Source: an uncultured Verrucomicrobiota bacterium
Lineage (GTDB): Bacteria; Verrucomicrobiota; Verrucomicrobiia; Limisphaerales; CAIMTB01
NCBI GenBank assembly: GCA_964608505.1
Contig: CAZSOV010000004.1
Span: forward strand, 4,098-68,097
Length of the DNA: 64,000 nucleotides
Reading direction: 5' to 3'
Shown: positions 10,968-39,175 of the stretch, one piece after another
How positions within the stretch are numbered: position 1 is the first letter of the stretch
Layout of the letters: every line of letters starts with the position of its first letter
Position numbers and translations under genes: made by a program
Notes under the pieces: model-generated
The model's database searches: none
What the model saw: the letters and a program-made list of their open reading frames with translations, nothing else
What the model was told of the DNA's origin: nothing

Positions 10968-11058
10968 TCCCGACCGAACGAGGGTCGTTGGCCAAGCCAA
11001 AAGCGGAACCGGCCCGGTCCGGCCCGGCCCAGGTTCGCCCGTGAACGGAGGACGCCCG

Positions 11059-12315: not shown

Positions 12316-12526
12316 GAACCAGCTAAGAAATTCCCGTAGAGGGCCTCCTCGTGTCAAGGAATGTGATGAGGAAACGCGGGGTCTCCGCAGGGCGATGGAC
12401 AACGTCCGGTGCGAATTCGCATCGAGTCCAGGAGGGGAGATTCTCGAAGAGTCATGACCGCTCGAACGCCGAGCCGAAAGCCGAGCCGTTGCCTCCGCCG
12501 TCAACCGCAGGCATGCTGCTGCACCG

Positions 12527-13471
12527 ATGACGAACCCGACACCCCCATGGACCGCGCCTTGGGCCGGCTTCTGCCTCCTCGCCGTGTGGTTGGTCGCCGG
12601 GTGCCAGTCACGGCGCGGCGCGGTGGACACACCCGTGCGCACCGAAAAGGGGTCGCCACCCGTCGCGACGGCGGGGGATCAGGCTTGGATGAAGGCGGGG
12701 CCTGCGGTGCTGCCCGCGGAACGGCGCCAAGTGACCGAGGTGCGGTTGGACGACGGAGCGCTGTACACGGGCTCGATGGTGCTGACGAACGGCGGCCTGG
12801 TGGCGCACGGGGAAGGCGTCTGCACGTGGCCGGACGGGAAGCGGTATGAAGGGGAATGGGCCGCCGGAAAGCCGCACGGGCGGGGGGTCACGCGGTCGCC
12901 GGGGGGAGAATCGTTCCGGGGGGAATTCCGCGATGGACTGCGCGAGGGCGAGGGCGCCGTCACCACCGGCACGGGGGCCGTGCTGACGGGCACCTACCGG
13001 GCGGACCAGGCGCACGGGTCGTTCCGCATCGTGGATGGACCCTTCGTCCTGGAGGGTCGTTTCGAGGAGGGGAACCGGGTGGGATGGTGGAAACGACGGG
13101 GCGAACTCGGCACGGACGTGGAGGAATGGCTCGAAAGCGGGCTCCGCACGAAGGCGCGTGGGTTGGTGGTGTTCGAGGACGGCGTCCGGCAATCGGGCGA
13201 GTGGGATTTCAAATCCGGCACCGGGAAGGGCGAGATCCGCTGGAAGGATGGACGGCGGTACCAAGGAGCTTGGCGGGCCGTCGACGGGGAGCCGAACGAT
13301 CCCCAGGGGTCGGGGGAAATGACCTGGCCGGACGGTCGGCGGTACGTCGGTGAATTCGCGAACGGCAAGCGGGAAGGGGAGGGACGTCTGACTCATCCCG
13401 ATGGACGGACGGAAGCCGGTCAGTGGAAGAACGACGAACTCGCGACACCCGCCAGGGGGGAGCGGAAGTAG
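12527..13471 (+). CDS. MORN-repeat lipoprotein
   Basis: Lipobox LVAGC after a hydrophobic leader. Multiple YxGxWxxGKxHGxG-type MORN repeats (YEGEWAAGKPHGRG, YQGAWRAVDGEPNDPQGSG, YVGEFANGKREGEG). Confidence 0.8.
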   Translation: MTNPTPPWTAPWAGFCLLAVWLVAGCQSRRGAVDTPVRTEKGSPPVATAGDQAWMKAGPAVLPAERRQVTEVRLDDGALYTGSMVLTNGGLVAHGEGVCTWPDGKRYEGEWAAGKPHGRGVTRSPGGESFRGEFRDGLREGEGAVTTGTGAVLTGTYRADQAHGSFRIVDGPFVLEGRFEEGNRVGWWKRRGELGTDVEEWLESGLRTKARGLVVFEDGVRQSGEWDFKSGTGKGEIRWKDGRRYQGAWRAVDGEPNDPQGSGEMTWPDGRRYVGEFANGKREGEGRLTHPDGRTEAGQWKNDELATPARGERK

Positions 13472-17108: not shown

Positions 17109-17171
17109 GACGAGCACGGCGAGAGTAAACTCTTGACTTGTTAATCGGAACCTCATTATCAAAACAACGAC

Positions 17172-17714
17172 ATGAAACACTGCCTCATCGCATTGTCCTC
17201 GCTGTTGGTTGCTGCCTCCTCTTTCGGGCAGGCCACCTTCCAGCTCAATAACCGCATCGTGGGTGTTGTCGACGCCCCGGTTTTCGTGGGTGACAGCTCG
17301 ACCCGCGCGAATGCTGACTACGTCGTCGCTCTCTTCGGTGGTGCCGCTGGCACGGCTGAAGCCGCGTTGACGCAGCAGGGTGGAACCCTTCCGTTCCGCA
17401 GCACGCCTGCGACCGGGTTGGGATATATCAACACCACTGGCGCTGACACGACCCGTTCCATCGGCGGCACCGCCGACGGTGCTTCGTCCGCCGTCCAGCT
17501 CCGCGCTTGGAGCGCGAGCATGAGCTACGCCGACGCGAACGCGGCGGGCATGGTCGGCAAGTCGGCTGTGTTGACCATCAACGGTGGTGGCGGTCTGACG
17601 CCTCCTGCCGCTCTGGCCGGTCTGGCGAGCTTCACCATCCCGGTTCCGGAGCCCAGTGCTGCTGCTCTCGGTCTTCTCGGCGCGGGTCTCCTCGCGATCC
17701 GTCGCAAGAAGTAA
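17172..17714 (+). CDS. PEP-CTERM sorting-domain protein of unknown function
   Basis: Signal peptide MKHCLIALSSLLVAASSFGQA. C-terminus IPVPEPSAAALGLLGAGLLAIRRKK is PEP, then a TM helix, then a basic tail. Confidence 0.88.
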   Translation: MKHCLIALSSLLVAASSFGQATFQLNNRIVGVVDAPVFVGDSSTRANADYVVALFGGAAGTAEAALTQQGGTLPFRSTPATGLGYINTTGADTTRSIGGTADGASSAVQLRAWSASMSYADANAAGMVGKSAVLTINGGGGLTPPAALAGLASFTIPVPEPSAAALGLLGAGLLAIRRKK

Positions 17715-17737: not shown

Positions 17738-17768
17738 AAGGCCGCCTGCAAAGGCGGCCTTTTTCTTT
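17738..17768 (+). terminator. rho-independent terminator
   Basis: AAGGCCGCC-TGCAAA-GGCGGCCTT (9-bp GC-rich stem) followed by TTTTCTTT, 24 nt after the stop of 17172..17714. Confidence 0.85.
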
Positions 17769-17815: not shown

Positions 17816-18196
17816 ATGGAACCACTCCGCGACTTTCCGCTCCAAGTCGCTCTCACCTTTGCCGTCATGGCGGTGGGGATGGGGGTGGGGCCGCTTTTCC
17901 TGGCCTGGCTGTGGGCGAGGTTTTTTTCTCCACGAAAACCGGGGTTCGACAAGAGTGCCAACTATGAGTGCGGTCTCGAGTCGGCAGGCGATCCCGGGGG
18001 CCAGCAACGGGTGGATTATTACCTTTACGCGATTGTATTTCTGGTTTTCGACGTGGAGAGCGTGTTCCTGATCCCGTTTGCCGTCGCCTATTCCGGGCTG
18101 CCCTTGGGCGCGGTCATCGCCATGGGCGTCTTCCTGTTGCTGCTCGCGGAAGGACTCGTCTGGGCCTGGCTGAAGGGAGTTCTCGAATGGCACTAG
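17816..18196 (+). CDS. nuoA: NADH-quinone oxidoreductase subunit A
   Basis: 126 aa, three TM segments, YECGLES and [15 protein letters not shown] motifs. Confidence 0.93.
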
Positions 18197-18831
18197 AACC
18201 CACCGCGCCCGGGCCCCAGACACCCGTGGCCCTCCAAGCTCGAGCCACCGTTCCCGGGGCGATGGTGATGCCGCTTCAGGCCATCTACAACTGGGGTCGG
18301 AGCAACTCGGTCTGGCCAATGCAGTTCGGTTTGGCGTGTTGTGCCATCGAGATGATCGCCACCACGATGGCCCGTTACGACATGGCCCGCTTCGGTTCCG
18401 AGGTGTTCCGACCGTCGCCGCGGCAGGCGGACCTCATGATCGTCTCGGGCACCGTGACCAAGAAAATGGCGCCCCAGATCGTGCGGCTTTACAACCAGAT
18501 GGCCGAGCCCAAGTACGTCATTGCCATGGGGGCCTGTGCGATTTCCGGAGGGCCATTCAAACAGGGATACAACGTCCTGAAAGGCATCGATCGGTATATT
18601 CCGGTGGACGTTCACATCCCGGGTTGTCCGCCGCGTCCGGAGGCGTTGATCCATGCGCTGATGACGCTGCAGGAGATCATTGCCAACCAATCCCTGACCG
18701 GGGAAGGGCGCCCACGGCATTTGCGCGCCGAAGCCCCGAGCGAGTTCGCGATTCCCGTGCCCGGACAGGACGATCTGCTGCCCACGAGCAATCGGGAGAT
18801 CTGGCATCCCCCGAAACGCATTCCCGTTTGA
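18187..18831 (+). CDS. nuoB: NADH-quinone oxidoreductase subunit B
   Basis: ATG at 18187 overlaps the nuoA stop. N2-cluster cysteines are present in [19 protein letters not shown] and IPGCPPRPE. Confidence 0.95.
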
Positions 18832-18853
18832 AGGAGAAGAACGCCCCGACACC

Positions 18854-19477
18854 GTGGAAAGCATCGAACAGACGATAGCGCGCCTGCGCGAGGCCTTTCC
18901 AGGCATCGGCCTGGAGTGCGTGCCGAACGGGGCACCCGGAGGTCTTCCCTCCCTGCGGGTGGAGTCCGCCCGGTTGGTGGAGGTGGCCCGATGGTTGCGG
19001 GACGATGAGGTGCTGCGCCTGGACTATTGTTCCAACGTGACCGGCGTGGACTGGCCCGATCGCACCGAGAAGCAGAAGGTGCGCAGGGTTGTCGAGGGGG
19101 TCGAAAAGGAAGCGGAGGAGGTGCGCACGATTCCGGGCTGTCTGGAGGCGATCTACCACTTGTATTCCATGACCCGGAAGCAGGGGCCGTTGGCGCTGCG
19201 GGTACGCACCCTGGATCGCCGGAATCTGGCGAGCGTGGCCTCCTTGACGCCTGTTTGGCGGTCGTGCGAGTTCCAGGAGCGGGAGGTTTTCGATCTTTAC
19301 GGCATAATCTTCGAAGGGCATCCGGACCTGCGCCGGTTGCTGATGTGGGAGGGCTTCCAAGGGCATCCCATGCGCAAGGACTACGTGGAACCGGACGACT
19401 ACGAATACGAGCCGACGCCCCACGATCACGTGTTGGAACGGGCGAAGGCGCGAACCCTGGCCGAGGAGGCAGGATGA
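18854..19477 (+). CDS. nuoC: NADH-quinone oxidoreductase subunit C
   Basis: GTG start. 30-kDa subunit motifs [22 protein letters not shown] and PMRKDY. Confidence 0.92.
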
Positions 19478-20670
19478 GAGTGGCCGCGGACTTGGACCCG
19501 GGGTTGGGGGCCGGCGGGGAATGGGAATCGCCGAGGTATGCGGTGCGTCAGGAGGATTCCGCGCACGGTCCGGAGTCGTTTCTCGAGATTTCGATGGGGC
19601 CCCAGCACCCTTCGACACACGGTGTCTTTCGGATGGATGTCGTGCTGGATGGGGAGACGGTGGTGAAGCTGAAACCGGTGTTCGGCTACCTGCACCGCAA
19701 TCATGAGAAAATCGCGGAGGGGACGAGTTACCTGGCGTCGATGCCGTACACGGACCGCCTGGATTATTTCTGCTCCCTGAGCAACAACTGGGCTTACGCG
19801 CTGACGGTGGAGAAGCTGGCGGGGTTGGCGGTGCCGGAGCGGGCGGAGTACCTGCGCGTCATCACGGCCGAACTGACGCGACTTCAGAATCACACCTGTC
19901 TGGCCGGGTTCCTGATGCAGGACATGGGGGCGAGCGGAACCCCGTTGATGTATGCCTTCCGCGAGCGGGAACGCATTCTCGATTTGTTCGAGGCGCTGAC
20001 CGGGGCGCGGATGATGTGCAATTACATGCGGTTCGGGGGGTGCCGCTGCGATGTGCCGCCGGGTTGGCTGGCGGCCGCGGCGAAGGTGGTGGACGAGTAT
20101 CCCCGGTTCCTCGACGAGTTCGAGAATCTGCTGACGGGCAACGAGATCGTCATGGCTCGAACGCAAGGGGTCGGGGTGCTCTCGCGGGAGCTGGCGATCA
20201 GCGCGGGGATCACGGGTCCCTGCCTGCGGGCCGCCGGTGTGGATTATGACCTCCGGAAGGTGGACGGATACGGGATCTATCCGCGTTTCGATTTCCGGGT
20301 TCCGCTGGGAGAGCATGGCGATACCTATGATCGGTACATGCTGCGGATTCTCGAGATGCGGGAATCGTTGGGCATCCTGAAGCAGGCCCTGGCCGGGATC
20401 CCGGAGGGACCGATCATCGATCCGAAGGCGAAGCTGCGGGGGTTTCGACCGAAGGCGGGGGAGGCCTACGGGAGGCTGGAGGCGCCGAAGGGCGAACTGG
20501 GGTTTTACCTGATCAGCGACGGGACCGCGAATCCGTATCGGTACCGGGTGCGTGCTCCGAGTTTGATCAATCTGACGGTGCTGGAGGACCTTTGCCTGGG
20601 ACACAACGTCGCGGACACGGTGATCGTGCTGGGGAGCATCGACATCGTGTTGGGCGAAGTGGACCGCTGA
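19474..20670 (+). CDS. nuoD: NADH-quinone oxidoreductase subunit D
   Basis: ATGA overlap with nuo[17 protein letters not shown] and [11 protein letters not shown] are 49-kDa subunit signatures. 398 aa. Confidence 0.95.
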
Positions 20671-20676
20671 ACTGCC

Positions 20677-21354
20677 ATGCTGGGAATCGGACTGCTCAAG
20701 GGACTGGCGGAGACCGGGCGCAACTTCGTGGGCTCGTACTTCGATGCGAACCGGCTGACCACGGTGCAGTATCCGGAGCAGCGGGAGCCCGCAAAGGAGA
20801 ACACGCGGCAGTTTCCGTTTCTGGTTTTCGACGGGACCGATCCGGAGACGGGATTGCGGTGCGTGGCCTGCCAGATCTGCGAGAAGGAATGCCCGCCGCA
20901 GTGCATCTACATCGAGAAGAGCAAGGAGAAGAAGCCGGACCATCTGGGGAAGCCTCAGTTCTTCCCGGCGACGTTCAACATCGACATCTCGGTCTGCATG
21001 AGTTGCCAGATTTGCGCGGAGGTATGCCCCTTCGACGCGATCAAGATGGATCAGGAGTTCGAACTCAGCACCGCGGATCGCTTCGGCGGCCTGTTGCTCA
21101 CCAAGCAACGCCTGTGGAAGTCGAACGGGCATTTCCGGCAGCTTCACCCGACGGACGCGTCGGAGATCGATGCCCGGCGGGAGGAGGAACGGGTCAAGGC
21201 CGAGGCCAAGGCGCAGGCAGAGAAGGAGGCCAAGGCCAAGGCTGCCGTGGCCGTTGCGGGAAATCCGCCGGCAACCCCCGCCCCGGCGAGGGGCCCCGCG
21301 GCCGCGGCGGCTCCGGCCAAGGCGGCGGTACGTACGGAAGGGGCCGAGGGATGA
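20677..21354 (+). CDS. nuoI: NADH-quinone oxidoreductase subunit I with a ~63-aa Ala/Lys/Glu/Pro-rich C-terminal tail
   Basis: Two 4Fe-4S motifs, CVACQICEKECP and CMSCQICAEVCP. Starts 6 nt after the nuoD stop. 225 aa. Confidence 0.93.
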   Translation: MLGIGLLKGLAETGRNFVGSYFDANRLTTVQYPEQREPAKENTRQFPFLVFDGTDPETGLRCVACQICEKECPPQCIYIEKSKEKKPDHLGKPQFFPATFNIDISVCMSCQICAEVCPFDAIKMDQEFELSTADRFGGLLLTKQRLWKSNGHFRQLHPTDASEIDARREEERVKAEAKAQAEKEAKAKAAVAVAGNPPATPAPARGPAAAAAPAKAAVRTEGAEG

Positions 21355-21532
21355 GCGGGGTGGCAGGCGGGGAAGATCACGGTGCGGCACCTGGCGGACG
21401 TCGACGACTCCCGCCCGGGGCGGGGCCGGGGTGTCATTTCGGTCGCAGCGGGCGGAATACCCCGAGAATGTGCTTCCCGCAGGGGCCGGGACCCATTGAA
21501 ATCGCCGCTCCGTTGCGGGGCTGACCGCGTGC

Positions 21533-22714
21533 ATGGCTGAAACCGTCGACCAAATCTTCGTGAACTTGTTGCGCTGGGGGGTGGGATTCCTCCCCGGACC
21601 GGTGCAGGCGCCGGCGGCCTTGGTGGCGTGTCTTGGCGCGATCCTTGCGACGTTTGGGGCCTTGTTCGGCCTGACCACGGTCGTCGAACGCAAGGCGATT
21701 GCCCGGATGCAGAATCGGCTGGGACCCAACCGCGTCGGGCCGTTCGGGTTCCTTCAGTTCGCGGCGGACGGGATCAAATCGTTGACGAAGGAGGACGTGG
21801 TGCCGCGGAACGCGGACCGGGTGGTGCATTTCCTGGCGCCGCTGGCGTTGTTGGTTCCCGTGGTGCTGACGTACCTGGTGCTCCCGTTCGGTCGGAACAT
21901 GGTGGTGCTGAATCTGGATGCGGGATTGTTGTTCTTCTTCGCGGCCGGGGCCTCGACGGAACTCGCGGTGTTCATGGCGGGGTGGGCGAGCCGCAACAAG
22001 TACTCGCTGCTGGGGGCGACGCGGGCCATCGCGCAGATGCTCAGTTACGAGCTGCCGTTCATCCTCTCGACCATCGGGGTGATCATGGTGACCGGGTCCT
22101 TGTCGACCGTGCGGATCGTGGAGGCGCAGTCCGCGGGAGTCGGGGAGTGGTTGGCACGGTGGAACGTGTTTACGCCGTGGGGTCTGATGGCGTTCCTGCT
22201 GTTCCTGATCGCCGCCTTCGCCGAATCGAACCGGTCGCCGTTCGATTTGCCGGAGGGGGAGTCCGAAATCGTCGCGGGGTATTTCATCGAGTATTCGGGC
22301 TTCAAGTTCGCGCTCTTCTTCATGGCCGAGTATCTGGGCATGTTCTCGAGCAGCGCGATGGCGGTGACGCTGTTTCTCGGCGGGTGGACAGCGCCGGTGA
22401 GTTTTCTGGGCTGGGTGCCGTCGTGGCTTTGGTTCTTCGGCAAACTGCTGGCGTTGATGGCCCTGTTCATCTGGGTGCGCGGAACAACTCCGCGCCTGCG
22501 GATGGACCAGCTGATGGATTTCGCGTGGAAATTCATGCTCCCCTTGTCGCTGCTGATCCTGCCGGTGGTGGTGATCTGGGGGCGCGTCGGGGGTGGCCTT
22601 CTGGGCTGGATCCTCGGGGGGCCGATCCTCGTGCTGGCCTACGTGCTGCTGGGACGCTCGCTCAAGGGGCGGCGCCAGATGCGTCCGCGGGTGTACCGCT
22701 ATGCGACGGGCTAA
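21533..22714 (+). CDS. nuoH: NADH-quinone oxidoreductase subunit H
   Basis: VERKAIARMQNRLGPNRVGPFGFLQFAADGIKSLTKED, plus ESNRSPFDLPEGESEIVAGYFIEYSG. Confidence 0.95.
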   Translation: MAETVDQIFVNLLRWGVGFLPGPVQAPAALVACLGAILATFGALFGLTTVVERKAIARMQNRLGPNRVGPFGFLQFAADGIKSLTKEDVVPRNADRVVHFLAPLALLVPVVLTYLVLPFGRNMVVLNLDAGLLFFFAAGASTELAVFMAGWASRNKYSLLGATRAIAQMLSYELPFILSTIGVIMVTGSLSTVRIVEAQSAGVGEWLARWNVFTPWGLMAFLLFLIAAFAESNRSPFDLPEGESEIVAGYFIEYSGFKFALFFMAEYLGMFSSSAMAVTLFLGGWTAPVSFLGWVPSWLWFFGKLLALMALFIWVRGTTPRLRMDQLMDFAWKFMLPLSLLILPVVVIWGRVGGGLLGWILGGPILVLAYVLLGRSLKGRRQMRPRVYRYATG

Positions 22715-22729
22715 AGCGAAAGGCAACGC

Positions 22730-23260
22730 GTGAACCCGTTTTTCTATCTGCTCGCGATTCTGACCCTGGGGGGCGCCGTGGCGGCGATGACGCTGCGGAA
22801 CGCGGTGCATAGCGCATTGTCCCTCGTGGTGACGTTCGTCGGGCTCGCGGGCGTGTACCTGGCCCTGGGCGCGCAGTTCCTCGGCTTGGTCCAGGTGATG
22901 GTCTATGTCGGGGCCGTGGCCATCCTGCTGGTCTTCGTGCTGCTCCTGACGCGGAGCGGCGATGGCGAACCCCGGGAAGGCGGACGGGAAGGATGGACAT
23001 GGGGGCTGACGACGGCGGGCGGGGTGGTGTTCCTGCTTTTGGGAGCCCTGCTGACCGGGCCGGGGCTGGGTAAACGCGAGGAACCGCCCGCACCGCCGGC
23101 CGTGAAGGAACTGGGGGAGGCCTTGATGACGGACTACGTCCTGCCGTTGCAGGTGGTGGGCGTGCTGCTGACGGTGGCCATGATCGGTGCGGCCGTGCTG
23201 GCGCTGCCCCGGGATTCGTCGGGTGCCGAAGGGGCGGGAGAAGGAGGGGGCCGACGATGA
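22730..23260 (+). CDS. nuoJ: NADH-quinone oxidoreductase subunit J
   Basis: GTG start, 176 aa. FLGLVQVMVYVGAVAILLVFVLLL is typical NuoJ TM3. Confidence 0.9.
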   Translation: MNPFFYLLAILTLGGAVAAMTLRNAVHSALSLVVTFVGLAGVYLALGAQFLGLVQVMVYVGAVAILLVFVLLLTRSGDGEPREGGREGWTWGLTTAGGVVFLLLGALLTGPGLGKREEPPAPPAVKELGEALMTDYVLPLQVVGVLLTVAMIGAAVLALPRDSSGAEGAGEGGGRR

Positions 23261-23568
23261 ACCCGCTGGTGGCGCATCTCATGCTGGCGGTGTTGCTCTT
23301 CGGAACCGGTCTCGCCGGGGCGCTTTCCCGACGCAACGCGATTCTGACGCTGATCGGCATCGAGCTGATGCTCAACGCGGGGAACCTGAGCTTCCTGAGT
23401 TTCTGGAGGTACGGCCCGAAGCCGGACGTGAACACGGGTTTGATGTTCGCCCTCTTCTCGATTGCGATCGCGGCGGCCGAGGCGGCGGTGGGACTGGCGT
23501 TGATCATCGCGCTGTACCGCCATCGGCGAACCACCTCGCTGCGGGCGGCGGAAGTCCTGAAGGGCTGA
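23257..23568 (+). CDS. nuoK: NADH-quinone oxidoreductase subunit K
   Basis: ATGA overlap with nuoJ, 103 aa, GIELMLNAGNL motif. Confidence 0.93.
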   Translation: MNPLVAHLMLAVLLFGTGLAGALSRRNAILTLIGIELMLNAGNLSFLSFWRYGPKPDVNTGLMFALFSIAIAAAEAAVGLALIIALYRHRRTTSLRAAEVLKG

Positions 23569-23573
23569 ATCCC

Positions 23574-25676
23574 ATGGCTACCCTGGCGCGCATGCTGTGG
23601 TTGATTCCGCTGTTTCCGCTGGCGGCGGCAGGGGTGATCGCGTTGCTGCCGAGGTCGGCGAAGCGGGCGGCCATGGGGCTCGGGATCGGGGCCATGGGGC
23701 TGGCGCTCGCGGGATCGGTGGCGGCCCTGGCGGCGACGGTGCTGGCGTCCGGGACGGGGGTGGCGCGGGTGGCCCTGAACTTCGACTGGTTCCGCCTCGG
23801 TACGGGCGCGGTGCGGTTGGGCGTGGTGCTGGACCCGATGTCGTCCGCCATGCTCCTGATGGTGAGTTTCGTGGGGTTGCTGATTTTCGTTTTCAGCACG
23901 GGCTACATGGCATCGGACGAGAACGTGACCCGGTTCTTCTGTTTCCTGTCGTTGTTCGCGGCGGCGATGCTGGGATTGGTGATGTCGAACAGCCTGCTGC
24001 TGTTTTTCGGCTGCTGGGAGGTGATGGGGCTGGCGTCGTACCTGCTCATCGGATTCTGGTTTCACAAGCCCTCGGCCGCGGCGGCCGCGAAGAAGGCGTT
24101 CGTGGTGACGCGGATCGGGGACGTGGGCCTCTTCCTGGGGCTCGTGTGGCTCTACGGGGAGACGGGCACTTCGCTGTTCTACGCCGAGGGGGCCGGCTGC
24201 CTGGAGCAGGCCGCCTTGGCCCGGCTGACCTCGACCGTCGTGACGGGCACGCTGACGGCGGCGACGGCAATCGGGTTGCTGTTGTTCGTCGGGGCGGTCG
24301 GCAAGTCCGGGCAATTGCCGCTGCATGTGTGGCTCCCGGACGCGATGGAGGGGCCCACCCCGGTCAGCGCGCTGATCCACGCGGCCACCATGGTGGCCGC
24401 AGGCGTGTTTCTGGTGGCCCGCGTGTTTCCGATCATGGCCGGTGGTCTCGACGTGCCGGTGGCGGCGGGCGGGAGCATGGCCTTGAACGTGGTGACCGTG
24501 GTCGGATCGTTGACGGCGGTCTTCGCGGCGCTCATCGCGGTGGCGCAGACGGACATCAAGCGGATCCTGGCGTATTCGACGGTCTCGCAGCTGGGGTACA
24601 TGTTCCTCGGGTTGGGAACGGGCGGGGTCGCGGTGGGAATGTTCCACCTCATTACGCACGCGTTCTTCAAGGCGCTTCTGTTCCTGGGATCGGGCTCGGT
24701 GATCCATGGGTGCCATCACGAGCAGGACATCCGGCGAATGGGCGGTCTGCGGAAGCGGATGCCCGTGACCTTCGCCACGTACGCCATCGGCATGATGGCC
24801 CTGTCCGGGGTTCCGTTGGTGTTTTCCGGATTCTGGAGCAAGGACGAGATCCTGCACACGGCCTGGCTGTGGCAGCCGAGTCGATGGCCCTTCGCGCTGG
24901 GTTTGGGTGGGGCCTTTCTGACGGCGTTCTACATGACGCGCCAGATGTTCGAGGTCTTCGCCGGTGCGTATCGAGGCGACGACGGGGCGGCGGACGGGCA
25001 CGGAGCCGACCACGGGCATGGGCACGGACACGAGGGTGGGCCTGGCGTACAGGAGAGTCCGCGGGTGATGACGGTTCCCTTGACCTTGCTGGCCGTGGCC
25101 GCCGTGAGTCTGGGAGTGATCGGGACGCCTGCCTGGCCGTGGTTCGAGGGTTTTCTGAACGGACACGCGGCCCACTGGGACACGGGGCGGTTGGTGCACG
25201 CCCTGCCGCTGATGGGTCTGTCGACCGTGGTGGTCGGCCTGGGTATCGGCGCGGGTTGGAGGTTGTACGGGCGCCGGACGCGGGAGAGCGCCGGCGCGCC
25301 GGACGTGCTCGAGGCGCGGATCCCGGCGGTGTACCGGTTGCTGGGGCGCCGGCTGCTGGTGGATGAACTCTACGAGTATACCGTGGTGATGGGCCACCGC
25401 TGGGGTTCGGCGCTGATGCGTTGGATCGACGAGTGGATCATCGCCGGTTTGGTGCTGGCGGTGGGCGGCATCGCCAACGGCCTGGCATGGGTCTCGCGCT
25501 GGGTGGACGAGTTCTTCGTCAATGCCGGCTTCGACGCCGGATGCGAGACGGCGCGGTGGCTGGGGCGCGGATTCTCGCGTGTCCAGAACGGCAACGTGCA
25601 GCGGTACTTGGGCTGGATGGGGCTGGGCGCGGTCGTGCTCGGCGGGGTCCTGATCTGGGGGATTCGTCCAGGATGA
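23574..25676 (+). CDS. nuoL: NADH-quinone oxidoreductase subunit L, elongated (700 aa)
   Basis: ATG at 23574. TM5 Glu in FGCWEVMGLASYLLIGFW. TM7 Lys in GAVGKSGQLPLHVWLPDAMEGPTP. TM12 Lys in GFWSKDEIL. Long C-terminal amphipathic region ending in a TM anchor. Confidence 0.93.
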   Translation: MATLARMLWLIPLFPLAAAGVIALLPRSAKRAAMGLGIGAMGLALAGSVAALAATVLASGTGVARVALNFDWFRLGTGAVRLGVVLDPMSSAMLLMVSFVGLLIFVFSTGYMASDENVTRFFCFLSLFAAAMLGLVMSNSLLLFFGCWEVMGLASYLLIGFWFHKPSAAAAAKKAFVVTRIGDVGLFLGLVWLYGETGTSLFYAEGAGCLEQAALARLTSTVVTGTLTAATAIGLLLFVGAVGKSGQLPLHVWLPDAMEGPTPVSALIHAATMVAAGVFLVARVFPIMAGGLDVPVAAGGSMALNVVTVVGSLTAVFAALIAVAQTDIKRILAYSTVSQLGYMFLGLGTGGVAVGMFHLITHAFFKALLFLGSGSVIHGCHHEQDIRRMGGLRKRMPVTFATYAIGMMALSGVPLVFSGFWSKDEILHTAWLWQPSRWPFALGLGGAFLTAFYMTRQMFEVFAGAYRGDDGAADGHGADHGHGHGHEGGPGVQESPRVMTVPLTLLAVAAVSLGVIGTPAWPWFEGFLNGHAAHWDTGRLVHALPLMGLSTVVVGLGIGAGWRLYGRRTRESAGAPDVLEARIPAVYRLLGRRLLVDELYEYTVVMGHRWGSALMRWIDEWIIAGLVLAVGGIANGLAWVSRWVDEFFVNAGFDAGCETARWLGRGFSRVQNGNVQRYLGWMGLGAVVLGGVLIWGIRPG

Positions 25677-27229
25677 ACACGCCCTGGCTGACCCTCCTGA
25701 CCGCCGCACCCCTGCTGGGCGGCCTGCTCGTCGCGTGGCTGCCGCGGTCGTGGGCGGGGCGCGCCCGGCCTTTGTGTCTGGCTTGGCAGGGGGCGGTGGC
25801 GGTGCTGGCGCTGTGGATCGCGGGTGGGTTCGACGGCGCCACGGGACAGCTGCAATTCGTGGAACGCCGGTCGTGGGTACCGGCGCTGGGAGCGGAGTAT
25901 TTCCTGGGATTGGACGGGCTGGGGTTGGTTTCGGTGCTGCTGACGGCACTGGTGCCCTGGTGGAGCACGTGGGTTTCGGAGCGGGTCGCGGCGGGGCGGG
26001 AGCGGTTGTATCACGCGTTGGTTCTGTTTCTGCAGGCCGGCCTGTTCGGGACCTTCACGGCCCTCAATTTCTTCCATTGGTTCCTGTTCTGGGAGCTGGG
26101 TCTGGTGCCGGCGTATCTGCTGGTGCGGTTTTTCGGCGGCGCCGGGGCAGGGGCGGCTTCGTTCCGGTTCTTCGTGTACACCATGGTCGGCAGCGTGGCG
26201 CTGCTGCTCGGGTTCCTGGCGCTGCGGGCCGTGGGTGGCAGTTTCGATTTTGTGCAACTGACGGAGTTCGGCCAGTCGGGGCGTCTGGCGTCGGCGTTGG
26301 GGGAGAAGCTGCCGTGGGCGGGGGTATTCGCGTCGGGAGAAGCCCTGGCCGTGGCGGTGTTTCTGGGCGTGTTGCTGGGCTTCGCGGTGAAGATGCCGTT
26401 GTGGCCGTTCCACACGTGGTTGCCCGAGACCTACGCGGCGGCGCCGTCGCCGGTCACGATGATGCTGACCGGGGTGATGTCGAAGATGGGGGTCTACGGG
26501 ATGTTGCGGATCGCGTTGCCGATCTTCCCGGACCAGTTCCGGGCGTGCCAGGGGGTGCTGGTGGCGCTGGCGCTCGCAACGGTGGTGCTGCCGACGTTGT
26601 CGGCCTTCGCGCAGACCGACGTGAAACGGGTGCTGGCGTATTCGTCGATCAACCACCTGGGCTACTGCGCGCTGGCCTTGTTCGTCCTGGCTCCGGGGGC
26701 GACGGGAGCCGCCTGGGTGGAGGGGGTCGGGGTGCCGGCCCTGAACGGGGTGATGCTGCAGATGCTGAACCACGGCATCACGGCGGCGGCGTTGTTCGCG
26801 GCGATCGAGATGCTGGAGCGACGGGGCGCCGCGGTGCGGACGCTCGGACAGGTCGGCGGGTTGCGGCGGGTGGCCCCGGTGCTCTGCGGGTTGATGGGGA
26901 TCAGCGTCTTCTCCTCGATCGGGTTGCCGGGGCTCAACGGGTTCGTGGGCGAGTTCCTGATCTTCCGGGGCGTGTTCGCGGCCCAGCCCTGGGTGGCCGC
27001 GCTGGCCTCGGTGGGACTGCTGACGACGGCCATCTTCCTGTTGACCCTGATGCAGAAGGTTTTTCACGGGCCGCCGGAACTGCCGGAGGGTGGTTTCGCC
27101 GATCTTGGCACGCGCGAGCGATGGCAGTTGGCCGTGCCGGTGGCGGTGATGTTGGTGCTGGGCGTGTACCCGGATTTGATCCTGCGGCTGACGAACGGAA
27201 CGGCGTTGAAACTGGCGGGAGGACACTGA
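25673..27229 (+). CDS. nuoM: NADH-quinone oxidoreductase subunit M (copy 1)
   Basis: ATGA overlap with nuoL. FWELGLVPAYLL (TM5 Glu), GFAVKMPLWPFHTWLPE (TM7 Lys) and GFVGEFLIF (M-type TM12 Glu). 518 aa. Confidence 0.92.
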   Translation: MNTPWLTLLTAAPLLGGLLVAWLPRSWAGRARPLCLAWQGAVAVLALWIAGGFDGATGQLQFVERRSWVPALGAEYFLGLDGLGLVSVLLTALVPWWSTWVSERVAAGRERLYHALVLFLQAGLFGTFTALNFFHWFLFWELGLVPAYLLVRFFGGAGAGAASFRFFVYTMVGSVALLLGFLALRAVGGSFDFVQLTEFGQSGRLASALGEKLPWAGVFASGEALAVAVFLGVLLGFAVKMPLWPFHTWLPETYAAAPSPVTMMLTGVMSKMGVYGMLRIALPIFPDQFRACQGVLVALALATVVLPTLSAFAQTDVKRVLAYSSINHLGYCALALFVLAPGATGAAWVEGVGVPALNGVMLQMLNHGITAAALFAAIEMLERRGAAVRTLGQVGGLRRVAPVLCGLMGISVFSSIGLPGLNGFVGEFLIFRGVFAAQPWVAALASVGLLTTAIFLLTLMQKVFHGPPELPEGGFADLGTRERWQLAVPVAVMLVLGVYPDLILRLTNGTALKLAGGH

Positions 27230-27232
27230 TCC

Positions 27233-28732
27233 ATGCTCCTGGCATCGACCATCCTGATCACATTCGCCGGGGTGCTGGGGGCCTACCTGGCCGGACCCGC
27301 GCGGGTGGGGTTGGTGCGGGCCGTCGCGTTGGGAAGCGCGCTGGCGGGCCTGGCGGCGGGCGTGGCCGGGGCGATCGGGTTCGGCGCGGGCGGCGAGGTG
27401 GTCACGTTGCTGCGGCTGCCGTGGGTCCCGTCGTTGGGGATCGAGTTCCACCTGGCGGCGGACGGGGTGAGCGTGGTGCTGGTGCTCCTGACGGGGGTGG
27501 CGGCGGTCGCCGGGGTGTTGTTCTCGTGGAACATCGAGGAGCGGGTGAACGAGTTTTTCGCGTTGTACCTGCTGCTCATCGCGGGGGTGTACGGCGTCTT
27601 CCTGAGTTTCGATCTGTTCCAGTTCTTCGCATTCTACGAACTGGCCATCGTGCCGAAGTATTTTCTGATCGCGATCTGGGGATCGACGCGGCGCGATTAC
27701 GGGGCGATGAAGTTGGCGCTGTACTCGTTCATCGGCAGCGCGGGGGTGCTGGTGGGGTTGCTGGCCTTGTACGCGGTCGCCGGGTTGGGGTCGTTCGACA
27801 TGCTGCGGCTCGCGGGAACCTCGTTGCCGGCGGGTTTTCAGGCATGGGCCTTCCCCCTCGTGTTTCTCGGCTTCGCGGTGCTGGCGGGCCTCTGGCCGTT
27901 CCACACGTGGGCGCCGACCGGCCACGTGGCGGCGCCAACGGCCGCGTCGATGCTGCTGGCGGGCGTGGTGATGAAGCTGGGGGCGTACGGCGCGCTGCGC
28001 GTGGCGATGGGGTTGATGCCGGAAGGGGCGAGGTCGTGGGGACCGGCGTTTGCGACGCTGGCGGTCGTGGGGATCGTGTACGCGGCGCTGGTGGCGCTGG
28101 TGCAGCAGGATTTCAAGTTCGTGATCGGGTACTCGAGCGTGAGCCACATGGGGTTCGTGCTGCTGGGATTGGCGGCGGCCACGCCGCGCGGGGTGGCCGG
28201 TGCCGTGTTGCAGATGTTCTCGCACGGGGTCATCGCGGGGCTGCTGTTCGGCGTGGTCGGACGGATGGTGTACGAGCGGACGCACACGCGGGAATTGTCG
28301 TTGTTGGAGGGGCTGGGGCTGGCGCGGGCGCTGCCGTTCGCGGGGGTCACGTTCACGCTGGCGGCGGTGGCCTCGATGGGCCTGCCCGGATTCAGCGGGT
28401 TCGTGGCGGAACTGCAGGTGTTGATGGGGGTCTGGCAGGTCTACCCGGCGGCGGCCCTGGCCGCGGGCGCGGGCGTGGTGCTCGCGGTGGCGTTCACCCT
28501 GCGGGTGCTGCAAAAGGCGTTTCTGGGAGAGGCGACAACCGGGGCGCGCCCGCTCGCGGAGACCGGAGCACCGCTGGAACCCATCACGGGGATGGAAAAG
28601 GCCGGTGCGCTGCTGTTGCTGGGAGTGAGCCTGGCGGTGGGGTTGTATCCCAGGCTGCTGATGGACTGGATCGACGCGGGGTTGGGTTCGGCGGCCTTCG
28701 CCGGCCTCCGACGGACGATGGGCTGGCCGTGA
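27233..28732 (+). CDS. nuoM: second NuoM-type antiporter-like subunit (copy 2, NuoM')
   Basis: FYELAIVPKYFLI (TM5 Glu), GFAVLAGLWPFHTWAPTGH (Leu at the TM7 Lys position) and GFVAELQVL (M-type TM12 Glu). 499 aa. Starts 3 nt after the stop of copy 1. Confidence 0.9.
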   Translation: MLLASTILITFAGVLGAYLAGPARVGLVRAVALGSALAGLAAGVAGAIGFGAGGEVVTLLRLPWVPSLGIEFHLAADGVSVVLVLLTGVAAVAGVLFSWNIEERVNEFFALYLLLIAGVYGVFLSFDLFQFFAFYELAIVPKYFLIAIWGSTRRDYGAMKLALYSFIGSAGVLVGLLALYAVAGLGSFDMLRLAGTSLPAGFQAWAFPLVFLGFAVLAGLWPFHTWAPTGHVAAPTAASMLLAGVVMKLGAYGALRVAMGLMPEGARSWGPAFATLAVVGIVYAALVALVQQDFKFVIGYSSVSHMGFVLLGLAAATPRGVAGAVLQMFSHGVIAGLLFGVVGRMVYERTHTRELSLLEGLGLARALPFAGVTFTLAAVASMGLPGFSGFVAELQVLMGVWQVYPAAALAAGAGVVLAVAFTLRVLQKAFLGEATTGARPLAETGAPLEPITGMEKAGALLLLGVSLAVGLYPRLLMDWIDAGLGSAAFAGLRRTMGWP

Positions 28733-28734
28733 CC

Positions 28735-30228
28735 ATGAACCTCGACTACCTGCAACTGGCCCGCCTGGCGACCGCCGAGATCCTGCTGGTGATCACGGCG
28801 CTCGTGGTCCTCGCCGTCGATCTCGGCCGGCGCGGCAAGGGCACCGAGCGGGGGCGGTGGGGATTGGCCGTCGGCGTGGGCGTGGCGGGGTGCCTGGCGG
28901 GTGTGGTCTGGCTGATGGCCGGCGCGGTGGAGGGCGCGGCGCCCGGGGCCATGCTGGTGAGCGACTCGCTGACACGATGGGTCCGGGGAGTGCTGCTGGG
29001 GTTGACGGCGGGGACCTTGCTGCTTTCGCGGGGCAACCGTTTCACGCCGCACGTCGGCGAATACGTCGCCGTGGTGCTGCTGGGTGCCGTCGGCATGTTG
29101 CTGATGGCCGCCACGGAGAACGTGCTCATGCTGTTCCTCGCGCTGGAGCTGGCGAGCGTGTCGCTCTACATCCTGACCGCGTTCGACAAACGCGACGGCT
29201 ACGGGATGGAGGCGGCGTTGAAGTACTTTCTCTTCGGCGGGATGGCGGGGGCGTTTCTGCTGTTCGGACTCAGCCTCCTCTACGGCGTCTCCGGATCCAT
29301 CGAGTTCCGGGGCATCGCGCGGGAGCTGGCCGGTGCGGGGCTGCCGCCGTTGTTGTTCGCGGGAGTGGTCCTGGTGTTCGTCGGACTGGGGTTCAAGGTC
29401 GCGGCCGTTCCGTTTCATTTCTGGGCCCCGGATGCCTACGAGGGCGCGCCGGCACCGGCAGCCGGCTTCATCGCGGGCGGATCGAAGGTGGCGGCGTTCT
29501 TCGTCGTGGCGAAATTCAGCATGCTGGCCCTGGCCGGGGTGGAAGGCAGCGGTGCCTGGGGGGGATTTCGGGCGGGTTGGATGCCGGTGGTGGCGTGTCT
29601 GGCCGGAGCCTCGATGCTGATCGGAAACCTGGCAGCCCTGTCGCAGTCAAGCGTGCGGCGGTTGCTCGGCTACTCCGCCGTGGCCCATGCCGGCTACACG
29701 CTGGTGGGAGTGCTGGCCGGCGGCCCCGACGGGATGCAGTCGGTGCTGTTCTATGCGTCGACCTATGCGGTGACGTCGTTGGGAATGTTCGGGATCGTGG
29801 GCTGGATCGAGCGCGCGACGGGCGGCTCGGACTTCCGCCATTTCGCGGGTTTGGCCGATCGCTCGCCGCTGGTGGCGTTGTGCCTCGGAATCTTCGTGCT
29901 GTCGCTGGGCGGCATCCCGCCGCTGGCCGGGTTCTTCGGGAAATTCTACCTGTTCCTCGCCGCGCTGAAGTCGGGGGGGACGGGGCTCGGCTTGCTCTGG
30001 CTGGCGGTGCTTGGCATCGCCACGACCTGCGTGTCGTTCTATTACTATCTCCGGCTGCTGAAGGTGGTGTTCGTCGACGCCGCGTCGGCGGGGTTTCGGC
30101 GTCCGACCGGCACGGGCGCCGAGTTGGCGACGATGGCCGTGGCGGCGCTGCTCGTCCTGCTTCTGGGCTGCGGACCCGGGCTGCTGCTGGACTCGCTGCA
30201 GGCGGCGGTGCTGGCCGTGAAATGGTGA
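28735..30228 (+). CDS. nuoN: NADH-quinone oxidoreductase subunit N
   Basis: ATG at 28735. FLALELASVSLYIL (TM5 Glu), GLGFKVAAVPFHFWAPDAYEGAP (TM7 Lys) and GFFGKFYLF (TM12 Lys). 497 aa. Confidence 0.92.
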   Translation: MNLDYLQLARLATAEILLVITALVVLAVDLGRRGKGTERGRWGLAVGVGVAGCLAGVVWLMAGAVEGAAPGAMLVSDSLTRWVRGVLLGLTAGTLLLSRGNRFTPHVGEYVAVVLLGAVGMLLMAATENVLMLFLALELASVSLYILTAFDKRDGYGMEAALKYFLFGGMAGAFLLFGLSLLYGVSGSIEFRGIARELAGAGLPPLLFAGVVLVFVGLGFKVAAVPFHFWAPDAYEGAPAPAAGFIAGGSKVAAFFVVAKFSMLALAGVEGSGAWGGFRAGWMPVVACLAGASMLIGNLAALSQSSVRRLLGYSAVAHAGYTLVGVLAGGPDGMQSVLFYASTYAVTSLGMFGIVGWIERATGGSDFRHFAGLADRSPLVALCLGIFVLSLGGIPPLAGFFGKFYLFLAALKSGGTGLGLLWLAVLGIATTCVSFYYYLRLLKVVFVDAASAGFRRPTGTGAELATMAVAALLVLLLGCGPGLLLDSLQAAVLAVKW

Positions 30229-30268: not shown

Positions 30269-31468
30269 CTAGTTCGATCCGTAGGTGCGCCGGTAGTTCA
30301 GGGGCGTCATCCGGCGCTCGTGGCGGAAGTAGCGGGCGAAGTGCTCCACCCCGGGAAAGCCGGTCGCGAAGGCGATCTCGGAAACCGAGAGGTTCGTTTC
30401 CACGAGCATCCGTGCGATCACCTCGACCCGGGAGCGGCGAACCTCGTGCAGGACCGAGCGTCCGAAAACCGAGCGGAAGCGGCGCTCCAGAACCCGGCGG
30501 GAGAGCCCCGCCGCGCGCGCGACGTCGTCGACGGCGATCCGTCGGCGGGCCTCCCGCCGAATGAACCGGATGGCCCGCGACACCGCCCCGTCCTCGATGA
30601 AGAGAATGTCGGTCGACTGGCGGGGCACGACATGGGTCGGCTGGACGAGGATGTCGTTCGTTCGGGACCGGCGCGGGTTGCGCATCATCGCGTGGAGCAG
30701 GCGGGCGGCTTCGAACCCGGCGCGTTCGAAGTTGATGGCGACGCTCGAGAGCGGGGGATGCCCGAGTTCGCAGACCAGTTCGTCGTTGTCGGCCCCGATG
30801 ATGCCGATGTCCTCCGGCACGCGGAGTCCGGCGAGTTTGCAGGCCTCGCTGACGTTCTGGGCGCGGTCGTCGTTGCAGGCCATGACGCCGGCGGGCAGGG
30901 GCAGTTCACCCAGCCACCGGGCCATGGAGGCCTGCTCGACCGCCCAGGGAACGAGGCTGGCGTCGTAGATCGGCTCCCGGACGGGTCGGTCGCGGGAGGG
31001 CGCGTAGTCCGCGCACGGCAGGCCGGTCGCGCGCAGGAGGCCGGCGAAGGCGTCCCGGCGTTCGTCCGACCAGGGATTGCCGGGGTATCCGACGAAGGCA
31101 AAGGACCGGAAGCCGCAGTCGATCAGGTGTTCGACGGCGAGACGGGAGATCATGCGCGAATCGGTGACGACATTGGACAGGCCGCGTACCTGCTGGCGGT
31201 GGTGCCCCACGACGATCGCGGGAATGCCGTAGCGGAGCACCTCCTGCACCCCATCGACGTCGCGCAACACGATGCCGTCGGCCGCGAGGCTGGCCAGCCG
31301 GCGGGAGAAGGCCTCGAAGCCGCCGGCCTCCCAGTGAAAGGTCCAGGGACCGTGGTGCCGGGCGTATTCCGAGATGCCGCGGAGCAGGCTGCGGCCCGAG
31401 GCGCGGGAGGATTCCAGGAGCAGGACGACGGTGGGAATCCGGGCGGGCCGGCGGGTGGGGGCAGGCAT
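30269..31468 (-). CDS. XylR-like transcriptional regulator (periplasmic-binding-protein-like sugar sensor domain plus AraC-type HTH)
   Basis: ATG at 31468. The N-terminal LacI/PBP-like domain starts [26 protein letters not shown]-terminal AraC HTH is [35 protein letters not shown]. Divergent from araA. Confidence 0.85.
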
Positions 31469-31614
31469 GGCGGGGTGGGAGGGGCAGGCTGGCAAACGAG
31501 TCGCAAATTGGTGAATCAAATTCGCATCGTGGCGTTGGCAGGACGACGCGGGCGGGGGAGGTTGGAGACCTGCTCCCGGGGGACAACGCCCCGGGAGAGT
31601 CACCGCGACCCACG

Positions 31615-33129
31615 ATGCAACAACACCTCCACGCCCTCGAAGTCTGGTTCGTCACCGGAAGCCAGCATCTCTACGGCCCCGCCGCGCTCCGGCAGGTGGC
31701 ACGGGATTCCCGGGAGATTGCCCGTTCCCTGAGCGCGGCCCGGGCCATCCCGGTCCGCGTCGTCTTCAAGCCGGTGCTGACGACCCCCGAGGCGGTCACG
31801 GCACTGTGCGGCGAGGCCAATGCCGCCGCGAAGTGCGTGGGGCTGATCACGTGGTGCCATACGTTCTCGCCGTCGAAGATGTGGATCCAGGGGCTGAGGC
31901 TGCTGCGGAAGCCCCTCCTTCACCTCCACACGCAGTACAACCGCGACATCCCGTGGGCGCGCATCGACATGGACTTCATGAACCTGAACCAGGCCGCGCA
32001 TGGCGACCGGGAACACGGCTTCATCATGTCCCGCCTCCGGCTGAACCGGAAGGTGGTCGTCGGCTTCTGGCAGGAGGAATCCACCCGGCAGCGGATCGGG
32101 GCCTGGTGTCGGGCGGCGGCGGCCTGGCATGACTGGCAGGGCGCGCGATTCGTGCGGTTCGGCGACAACATGCGGGAGGTCGCCGTGACCGAGGGCGACA
32201 AGGTCTCGGCCCAGATGCGGTTCGGATTCTCCGTCAACGGCTACGGCGTCGGCGACCTCGTGGACCGCATCAAGGAGGTCGGGGACGACGACCTCGACCG
32301 GCTCCTGGGCCGGTACGAGAGCCAGTACGAGGTGGCTCCCGACCTGCAACGCGGCGGTCGGCGGGCCCGCTCCGTCCGCGAGGCCGCCCGGATCGAGCTC
32401 GGACTCCGGGCCTTTCTCGAGGAGGGCGGCTTCAAGGGGTTCACCACCACGTTCGAGGATCTGCACGGTCTCGTGCAGTTGCCCGGACTCGCGCCGCAGC
32501 GGCTCATGGCGGAGGGCTACGGGTTCGGAGCCGAAGGCGATTGGAAGACGGCGGCGCTCCTGAGGGCGATGAAGGTCATGGGAACCGAATTGCCGGGCGG
32601 GACTTCGTTCATGGAGGACTACACGTACCACCTGGGCCCCGGCGGCAAGAAGGTTCTGGGCGCGCACATGCTCGAGATCTGCCCGTCGATCGCCGCCGGT
32701 CGGCCTTCGTTGCAGGTCCATCCACTGGGCATCGGCGGGAAGGCGGACCCGGCCCGCCTCGTGTTCGGCACCCCGGCGGGGCCGGGGCTCAACGCGTCGT
32801 TGATCGACCTGGGGAACCGGTTTCGCCTGCTGGTGAACGAGGTGGAGGTCGTCGAGGCCGACGAACCCATGCCGCGCCTGCCCGTGGCCCGGGCGCTGTG
32901 GCAGCCAAAGCCCGATTTCGAAACGGCCTGTGGCTGCTGGATCCAGGCCGGGGGCGCGCATCACACGGGCTTCAGCCGGGCGGTGACCACCGAGATGCTG
33001 GAGGATTTCGCCGGCATGGCGGGCCTGGAACTGGTCGTCATCGATGCCGAGACCCGGCCACGCCGTTTGCGTCAGGAATTGGAATGGAACGAGGTCGCCT
33101 ACGGCCTGAAACAGGGGTTCGTGGCATAG
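31615..33129 (+). CDS. araA: L-arabinose isomerase
   Basis: 504 aa. N-terminus [14 protein letters not shown] and overall AraA-like sequence. Confidence 0.92.
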
Positions 33130-33172
33130 GCAATCCGCCGCGTGCGCGGCATCCCTTTGGAGGAACGAGACC

Positions 33173-35548: not shown

Positions 35549-35587
35549 AACCATGCCCGCCACCCTGACGGTCCTGACCGAACTACC

Positions 35588-36580: not shown

Positions 36581-36599
36581 GGCCGGGCATCCCAGGCGC

Positions 36600-39112: not shown

Positions 39113-39175
39113 GCCGGGGCGCCGCCGCCGAACCGTTTCCGGCGGACGCGTCCCCGCCGCGGTTTGATTTCGGCC

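Follow-up and report, generated by a model that had tools for sequence, protein, structure and literature searches.

The window analysed here is a 64-kb stretch of DNA (64,000 nucleotides of contig CAZSOV010000004.1) from an uncultured Verrucomicrobiota bacterium, and its positions 17816-30228 hold an operon for a relative of respiratory complex I. Open reading frame (ORF) listing, translation and start-codon inspection resolved 12 co-oriented genes on the plus strand in the order nuoA-B-C-D-I-H-J-K-L-M1-M2-N, and searches of all 12 ORFs against Pfam and NCBIfam confirmed the identity of each. All 11 core families of the complex I superfamily are present (NuoA, B, C, D, H, I, J, K, L, M and N), with NuoM encoded twice, and genes for the NADH-oxidizing N-module (nuoE, nuoF and nuoG) are missing from the window. 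The operon is a Verrucomicrobiota member of the published class of complexes that lack the N-module and carry two NuoM subunits, referred to as 2M complex I.

The series begins with nuoA (17816-18196, 126 aa; PF00507, E 7.6e-28), which overlaps nuoB (18187-18831, 214 aa; PF01058; NF011394, 326 bits against a 312-bit cut-off) by 10 nt. These are followed by nuoC (18854-19477, 207 aa, GTG start; PF00329, E 5e-37), a gene separate from nuoD, and by nuoD itself (19474-20670, 398 aa; PF00346, E 8e-92), whose top match among solved structures is Thermus Nqo4 (4e-103). nuoI (20677-21354, 225 aa; 77.9 bits against the 113-bit NuoI cut-off) lies 5' of nuoH (21533-22714, 393 aa; PF00146, E 2.5e-111; NF004741 above cut-off), and the remaining membrane genes are nuoJ (22730-23260, 176 aa, GTG start; PF00499), nuoK (23257-23568, 103 aa; PF00420), nuoL (23574-25676, 700 aa, ~90 residues longer than E. 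coli NuoL; NF005141, 613 bits against a 556-bit cut-off), nuoM1 (25673-27229, 518 aa; TIGR01972, 423 bits), nuoM2 (27233-28732, 499 aa, 34% identical to M1; TIGR01972, 416 bits) and nuoN (28735-30228, 497 aa; TIGR01770, 375 bits). Cut-offs were passed for the NCBIfam models of B, D, H and L and for the TIGRFAM models of M and N. The preliminary description of this locus had reported 12 tightly packed genes with several ATGA overlaps, a nuoD stop at 20670 and a nuoI start at 20677 with no nuoE/F/G between them, and nuoI ahead of nuoH. Both coordinates are exact, ORF order and the Pfam and NCBIfam identities bear out nuoI as 5' of nuoH, and ATGA overlaps occur at three junctions (C/D, J/K and L/M1), but the packing is uneven, with 178 nt separating nuoI from nuoH. 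In relatives this gap measures anything between -4 and more than 1000 nt, and we rejected it as a feature in its own right: it has no Rfam match, its 61-codon frame has no Pfam family and relatives do not conserve its length. Within it, at 21414-21430, is a weak GC-rich hairpin. Ahead of the operon, an intrinsic-terminator-like hairpin on the plus strand (17738-17761, with a stem of 10 bp and a T-run behind it) terminates the preceding PEP-CTERM gene and leaves ~54 nt for the operon's own promoter.

A Pfam scan of ~45 ORFs across the window recovered no NuoE, NuoF or NuoG domain, and tblastn with the E. coli proteins (NC_000913) returned nothing in the window at E <= 1e-5. Scanning NuoD against one genome per GTDB species yielded at least 585 confirmed relatives, the best 80 of which (75-86% identity) are the related loci of this analysis; the 12 window proteins and E. 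coli NuoE/F/G were then mapped onto these loci. The nuoE, nuoF and nuoG set of the canonical 14-subunit enzyme is absent from the operon, from the window and from within ±10 kb of every one of the 80 loci, and the canonical D-(E-F-G)-H-I-J order is replaced by D-I-H. The earlier claims that the operon has no N-module and encodes no direct NADH site are upheld.

As summarized in papers citing Chadwick et al. 2018 (ISME J 12:2668), 2M complex I is distinguished by a second NuoM and a 26-aa insertion in the lateral helix HL of NuoL (PMC9040806, PMC6606698), and the Nitrospira-type 2M clade has separate NuoC and NuoD and lacks the N-module genes (PMC6606698, PMC12342949). Each of these features is found in the window: a second NuoM gene sits between nuoL and nuoN, with M1 and M2 both above 415 bits on TIGR01972; HL carries an insertion of ~26 aa; nuoC and nuoD are separate; and nuoEFG is absent. 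In Acidobacterium capsulatum, an "unusual complex I (Chadwick et al. 2018)" is listed as ACP_2565-2576 (PMC11636273, Table S3), comprising ACP_2565 nuoA, 2566 nuoB, 2567 nuoC, 2568 nuoD, 2569 nuoI, 2570 nuoH, 2571 nuoJ, 2572 nuoK, 2573 nuoL, 2574 nuoM, 2575 nuoM-II and 2576 nuoN, with the nuoE/F/G rows empty (PMC11636273). Gene for gene, the window operon agrees with this listing in content and in order, D-I-H included, an indirect link to the A. capsulatum 2M complex through gene order and content. ACP_2565-2576 is transcribed, and under low O2 its nuoA and nuoB rise ~5-fold and ~4-fold in transcripts per million (log2 fold changes 3.2 and 2.8) while M-II and N of the same operon fall more than 10-fold (PMC11636273), opposite shifts that indicate unequal transcript abundance within the operon. 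Nitrospira moscoviensis CI_1, also a 2M complex, shares the second NuoM, the longer NuoL helix, the separate nuoC and nuoD and the lack of nuoEFG, although its host is a nitrite oxidizer and the window derives from a Verrucomicrobiota heterotroph. Chloroflexi 2M complexes, in which nuoBCDI forms its own cluster, provide a precedent for the adjacency of D and I.

The related loci belong almost entirely to Verrucomicrobiota (Limisphaerales, Verrucomicrobiales and Opitutales) or to Acidobacteriaceae (Granulicella and Edaphobacter), the latter with operons of the same order and content and a NuoD identity of 75-82%. The full A-B-C-D-I-H-J-K-L-M1-M2-N order was observed in 38 of the 80 loci, and most others are cut by contig ends. 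The preliminary description had called for a check of whether D-I-H is conserved among relatives; it is present in 60 loci, with D-I in 67, L-M1-M2 in 44 and D-H in none. Where rearrangements occur they fall at module boundaries, as a split after D in two loci (L016, L025), an inversion after I in another (L024) and an orphan nuoD in five more. The NuoD tree places all Acidobacteriaceae in a single clade among the Verrucomicrobiota, and this nesting, together with the high identity between the phyla, suggests that the whole operon has been transferred, apparently from Verrucomicrobiota to Acidobacteriaceae. The window NuoD itself groups with Opitutales on a long branch, and the mean identity of the 12 proteins favors Limisphaerales-like genomes. 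Because the same order and content recur in 38 loci and are published for A. capsulatum, the proposal of a distinct, uncharacterized module does not stand: this arrangement is ordinary in dozens of Verrucomicrobiota and Acidobacteriaceae genomes, which is largely the outcome that the preliminary description had itself named as refuting the proposal. It is, however, not a well-studied form, being known in silico and from transcripts but not biochemically.

Two further observations concern these loci. An orphan nuoD, 77-86% identical to the window NuoD and lacking any further nuo gene within 10 kb, occurs in five of them (L001, L021, L037 and L072, each at ~10001-11100, and L011 at 2917-4017); the carriers are three genomes labelled Verrucomicrobiota/Limisphaerales, one mislabelled metagenome-assembled genome (MAG) and Limisphaera sp. 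VF-2, and the neighbors in L072 are FG-GAP, GFO/IDH/MocA, SDR and GntP genes. In addition, 25 Verrucomicrobiota loci conserve a ~90-codon gene directly 5' of nuoA (for example L023 7967-8239, L005 8045-8272 and L009 3707-3958), whose product has a Lys/Arg-rich N-terminus followed by LGVGLDSDGHKRVTTGPNF...MTEKAIKINEKL.

Closer inspection of the individual subunits revealed that the residues expected of a working enzyme are retained. NuoB keeps the four ligands of iron-sulfur (Fe-S) cluster N2 (CC at 51-52, C117 and C147), NuoI has two CxxCxxCxxxCP motifs (residues 62 and 107), and NuoD keeps the quinone-site histidine (GPQHPSTHG; H45/H49) and Tyr98 (RLDY). In the membrane arm, NuoK retains E36 and E75, and NuoL, M1 and N keep the chain formed by Glu on transmembrane helix (TM) 5, Lys on TM7, Lys or His on TM8 and Lys or Glu on TM12; NuoM1 has the complete canonical charged set (E141, K240, K271, H328, H367 and E427), and E138, K221 and K403 are present in NuoN. 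The sole exception along the membrane Glu/Lys chain is the TM7 lysine of M2, which is replaced by Leu217. Identity to the E. coli subunits ranges from 24 to 52% (B 52%, H 44%, D 40%, I 31%). Because the Fe-S, quinone and channel motifs are intact, the operon is predicted to encode a functional enzyme and not a relic.

The altered lysine of NuoM2 is part of a consistent pattern. NuoM2 has E136, K248, H305, H331 and E393, and the position of the TM7 lysine (E. coli NuoM K234) is taken by Leu217 (codon 27881-27883, plus strand), while a lysine, K142 (27656-27658, plus strand), appears on TM5 six residues after E136, a position occupied by Met in E. coli and by Ala in M1. Leu217 and K142 occur together in 46 of 46 M2 orthologues, and the M1 pattern in 47 of 47 M1 orthologues. 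We then compared more distant NuoM proteins using the 150 best 50%-identity representatives of a full-library search. In ~96 of the 150 the TM7 lysine is present and the TM5 lysine absent, save two exceptions, whereas ~45 lack the TM7 lysine and about half of those carry one on TM5, such that the two positions covary. Given the fixation of Leu217 and K142 in orthologues and this trade-off among representatives, the Glu/Lys pair of M2 seems to have been re-wired and not lost.

The second structural departure lies in the lateral helix HL of NuoL (approximately residues 576-672; 25299-25589, plus strand), which carries the ~26-residue insertion. The distance from the (F/V)DELY motif to the NuoL C-terminus is 105 aa in the window and 103-105 aa in nearly all two-M loci in which the motif was found, as opposed to 81 aa in L009, the only single-M locus, and 73 aa in E. 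coli; the extension amounts to ~24 aa relative to L009 and ~30 aa relative to E. coli and cyanobacterial NdhF1. A pairwise alignment of L013 (two M) with L009 (one M) places 5+21 = 26 extra residues just after the DELY motif. Within HL of the window we found three hydrophobic-Asp-Glu/Arg-hydrophobic motifs (VDELY at 596, RWIDEWIIAG at 616 and RWVDEFFVNAG at 642; residues 596-667, 25359-25574) spaced 22 and 26 residues apart. Since L009 has only two copies, the 26-aa insertion resembles the product of a tandem duplication of a single helix unit. A single-sequence model of the NuoL C-terminal fragment, used solely for helix boundaries, is helical over 593-672 at low confidence (predicted local distance difference test (pLDDT) 60.7). 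L009 and L013 are 90-96% identical from nuoC to approximately residue 250 of NuoL and 25-64% identical beyond (L009 9694-11610), with a sharp breakpoint inside nuoL at a conserved motif. The breakpoint could have arisen by recombination, with the distal pump module swapped as a cassette, or the MAG contig could be a chimera. L009 still ties the short lateral helix to a single M, and we make no claim that it shares a proximal module with the two-M operons. On these measurements, the lateral-helix insertion tracks the number of M genes.

NuoI, the subunit at which electrons would enter, is the most divergent of the peripheral arm. Its best matches among solved structures reach only E ~1e-13, compared to 1e-103 for NuoD, it scores under the cut-off of every NuoI model in NCBIfam, and NCBI names its orthologues (P0009, P0020, P0042 and others) only "4Fe-4S dicluster domain-containing protein". 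At least 8000 NuoI relatives were scored. The protein ends in an extension (residues 150-225; 21124-21354, plus strand) composed of a conserved motif, a Lys/Glu/Ala-rich helix at ~158-193 and an Ala/Pro-rich disordered end. This extension, with the conserved motif LAKSNEYYxKIHPTEAAEVDA, was observed in every orthologue of the related loci, and it had no match among solved structures; the helix at 158-193 reaches a pLDDT of 71-83 within an otherwise poor AlphaFold model. The tailed NuoI had been put forward as a mark of a distinct module, a view contradicted by its occurrence across the clade and not specifically in this genome. In a literature search that was not exhaustive, we found neither the NuoI tail nor the shift of the M2 lysine from TM7 to TM5 described for the 2M class. 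The divergence of NuoI and its conserved extension would fit a docking partner different from that of the canonical enzyme.

Other complex I relatives offer points of comparison. The canonical enzyme (E. coli NuoA-N, Thermus Nqo1-15) shares the 11 core families, the Fe-S and quinone motifs and the charged residues of L, M1 and N, but differs in having NuoE/F/G, a single NuoM, a shorter lateral helix and nuoH before nuoI. Cyanobacterial and plastid NDH-1L, a ferredoxin:plastoquinone oxidoreductase, likewise consists of an 11-subunit core without the N-module; cyanobacterial NdhF1 (6hum_F, E 6e-126) is the top solved match of NuoL, and NuoD matches NdhH nearly as well as Thermus Nqo4. NDH-1L, however, has three antiporter-like subunits per complex as opposed to four here, and it binds ferredoxin through the lineage-specific NdhS/V/O, whereas none of the ~45 window ORFs belongs to a Pfam family of the NDH-1-specific subunits (NdhL-NdhS, NdhV). 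The NDH-1 gene order ndhA-I-G-E also places H before I. Extra pumps and a matching 26-aa lateral-helix insertion are also found in Ca. Manganitrophus Complex_I_3 and the rhizobial "green" complex I (PMC9040806), but there two MrpD-like subunits replace NuoL to give 4-5 pumps, whereas the window keeps NuoL and doubles only NuoM. We rejected an identity as Fpo, as the NCBIfam FpoC/D/H/I/L models score far below their cut-offs (FpoD 338 against 600) and no FpoF-like ORF was found in the window. A group 4 membrane-bound [NiFe] hydrogenase (Mbh/Ech/Hyf) is ruled out by the missing NiFe cysteine pairs in NuoD: its C-terminus is LGEVDR, the NiFe-binding cysteine motifs were not found in it, and the NiFeSe model gives only 23 bits. 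Fpo lacking FpoF reportedly uses ferredoxin, with a Lys-rich C-terminal extension of FpoI proposed as the docking site, an account attributed to Welte and Deppenmeier that a literature search did not confirm. The Fpo of acetate-using methanogens differs in being archaeal, in using methanophenazine and in having three pump subunits, and we treat the resemblance as a lead only.

Considering these features in combination, we infer the donor, the direction of operation and the proton stoichiometry as follows. Electrons must come in through NuoI, the outer cluster of which NuoG normally covers: a soluble carrier of low potential, most likely ferredoxin and possibly flavodoxin, would deliver them to the exposed clusters of NuoI in the arm formed by NuoB, C, D and I. 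Electrons would then travel from N6a/N6b to N2 and on to menaquinone at the NuoD/B/H site, and menaquinone reduction would drive protons through the NuoH/A/J/K channel and the four antiporter-like subunits N, M2, M1 and L, with the NuoL lateral helix, ~26 residues longer, spanning the extra subunit and an expected yield of ~5 H+ per 2 e-. The step from NADH to menaquinone spans ~0.25 V, or ~0.5 eV per 2 e-, and that from ferredoxin to menaquinone ~0.35-0.4 V. By our own reckoning from these standard potentials, the former would provide too little energy for 5 H+ at normal proton-motive force, whereas the latter would be roughly enough. Ferredoxin is also generally proposed as the donor of complexes lacking the N-module (10.1101/765248; PMC6606698), and it is this proposal together with the energy balance of the fifth proton that inclines us, by a modest degree, towards a donor of the ferredoxin type, operation in the forward direction and a yield of ~5 H+ per 2 e-. 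The earlier suggestion that the enzyme probably does not use NADH directly and represents a distinct module thus survives in its first half, as the N-module is missing and NADH is probably not the donor, and fails in its second. A more specific proposal, which we advance tentatively and would sooner doubt than endorse, is that the Verrucomicrobiota/Acidobacteriaceae clade is mechanistically distinct within the 2M class, as a ferredoxin:menaquinone oxidoreductase that translocates five protons in aerobic heterotrophs of soil and fresh water. In such an enzyme the NuoI helix would dock the donor, the subunit adjacent to NuoN would work with a re-wired ion pair, its lysine moved from TM7 to TM5, and the lateral helix would have grown by tandem duplication of a 26-residue contact unit.

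Several observations weigh against a ferredoxin-driven enzyme. No ferredoxin, flavodoxin, NdhS-like or FpoF-like gene was found by Pfam among the ~45 ORFs of the window, and no gene for a donor or for donor docking is conserved beside the operon in the related loci. The NuoI tail is nearly charge-neutral (12 K/R and 11 D/E) and so offers no obvious basic docking surface for an acidic ferredoxin, and the AlphaFold model of NuoI, built on a 51-sequence alignment, is too poor for surface inspection (pLDDT 47.6). We know of no member of this enzyme class that has been purified. Finally, A. capsulatum carries both the ACP_2565-2576-type operon and the canonical operon ACP_0284-0296, which includes nuoE, F and G and is the only place where they occur in that genome (PMC11636273), making a shared N-module possible. 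In the main rival reading, the enzyme would be an NADH:quinone oxidoreductase that recruits NuoE, F and G from elsewhere, such as a canonical operon, to form a 15-subunit five-proton isozyme, and peat Acidobacteria MAGs do carry several nuo operons, one of them with nuoEFG. We nevertheless consider this unlikely, as none of the 80 loci has nuoEFG within ±10 kb, NuoI, which would need to dock NuoG, is strongly diverged and bears its own extension, and the energy available from NADH to menaquinone appears, from the standard potentials, too small for a fifth proton.

Reverse operation, in which the proton-motive force would admit five protons and drive electrons from menaquinol up to ferredoxin, is a published hypothesis for the 2M-type complexes of Nitrospira and Ca. 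Manganitrophus (PMC9040806, PMC6606698, PMC12342949), and an extra pump subunit is of equal help to the uphill and the downhill reaction. For the present clade it is improbable, given that the carriers are sugar-degrading heterotrophs, with the window operon flanked by arabinan, cellulose and other glycoside hydrolase genes, and not autotrophs that need reduced ferredoxin for the reductive tricarboxylic acid cycle; the distal genes of the A. capsulatum operon also go down at low O2, when the quinone pool is reduced (PMC11636273). Input might instead come through another dedicated module encoded elsewhere. Flavodoxin, a module linked to formate or hydrogen, and a small adaptor are candidates, the last exemplified by the unannotated ~90-aa protein encoded 5' of nuoA in the 25 Verrucomicrobiota loci, and truncated complexes in other organisms do use flavodoxin (Campylobacter) or F420H2. 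However, the ~90-codon gene is absent from the window and from all Acidobacteriaceae loci, its product has no Pfam family or cofactor-binding motif, and the loci of the two phyla share no other conserved neighbor, which leaves this option with a rather small probability. That the operon is a decaying or non-functional paralogue, as the loss of the otherwise universal TM7 lysine in M2 might hint, is extremely improbable in light of 12 of 12 intact reading frames, the preserved Fe-S, quinone and channel motifs, the fixation of the M2 leucine in 46 of 46 orthologues together with the compensating TM5 lysine, the conservation of order and sequence across two phyla and the transcription of the orthologous A. 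capsulatum operon (PMC11636273).

The surroundings of the operon encode PEP-CTERM proteins, IspD, a pseudouridine synthase and enzymes of the glycoside hydrolase (GH) families GH5, GH9, GH31 and GH127, which, together with a G+C content of ~68%, gives the window the profile of a Verrucomicrobiota bacterium that degrades polysaccharides. Directly adjoining the operon, positions 30269-41623 form an arabinan/arabinose utilization cluster with an AraC/LacI-type regulator on the minus strand, L-arabinose isomerase, alpha-L-arabinofuranosidase, a GH127 beta-L-arabinofuranosidase and an ABC (ATP-binding cassette) sugar transporter consisting of a binding protein, an ATPase and a permease. Upstream lie genes for two PEP-CTERM-tagged secreted proteins, at 11059-12678 (minus strand) and 17145-17714 (plus strand), one of which has a trypsin-like domain.

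For the window itself, the result is mainly a correct annotation. The generic name given to NuoI has wider effects, as it makes these operons look incomplete and devoid of nuoI in automated genome surveys. In addition, the Glu/Lys ion-pair model of coupling in complex I could be tested directly on M2, where the lysine has been relocated by nature. Such complexes are very common, with at least 8000 NuoI relatives and at least 585 GTDB species genomes, and their carriers are abundant soil and freshwater heterotrophs. If they are indeed driven by ferredoxin and pump five protons, the energy yields estimated for Verrucomicrobiota and Acidobacteriota would have to be revised.

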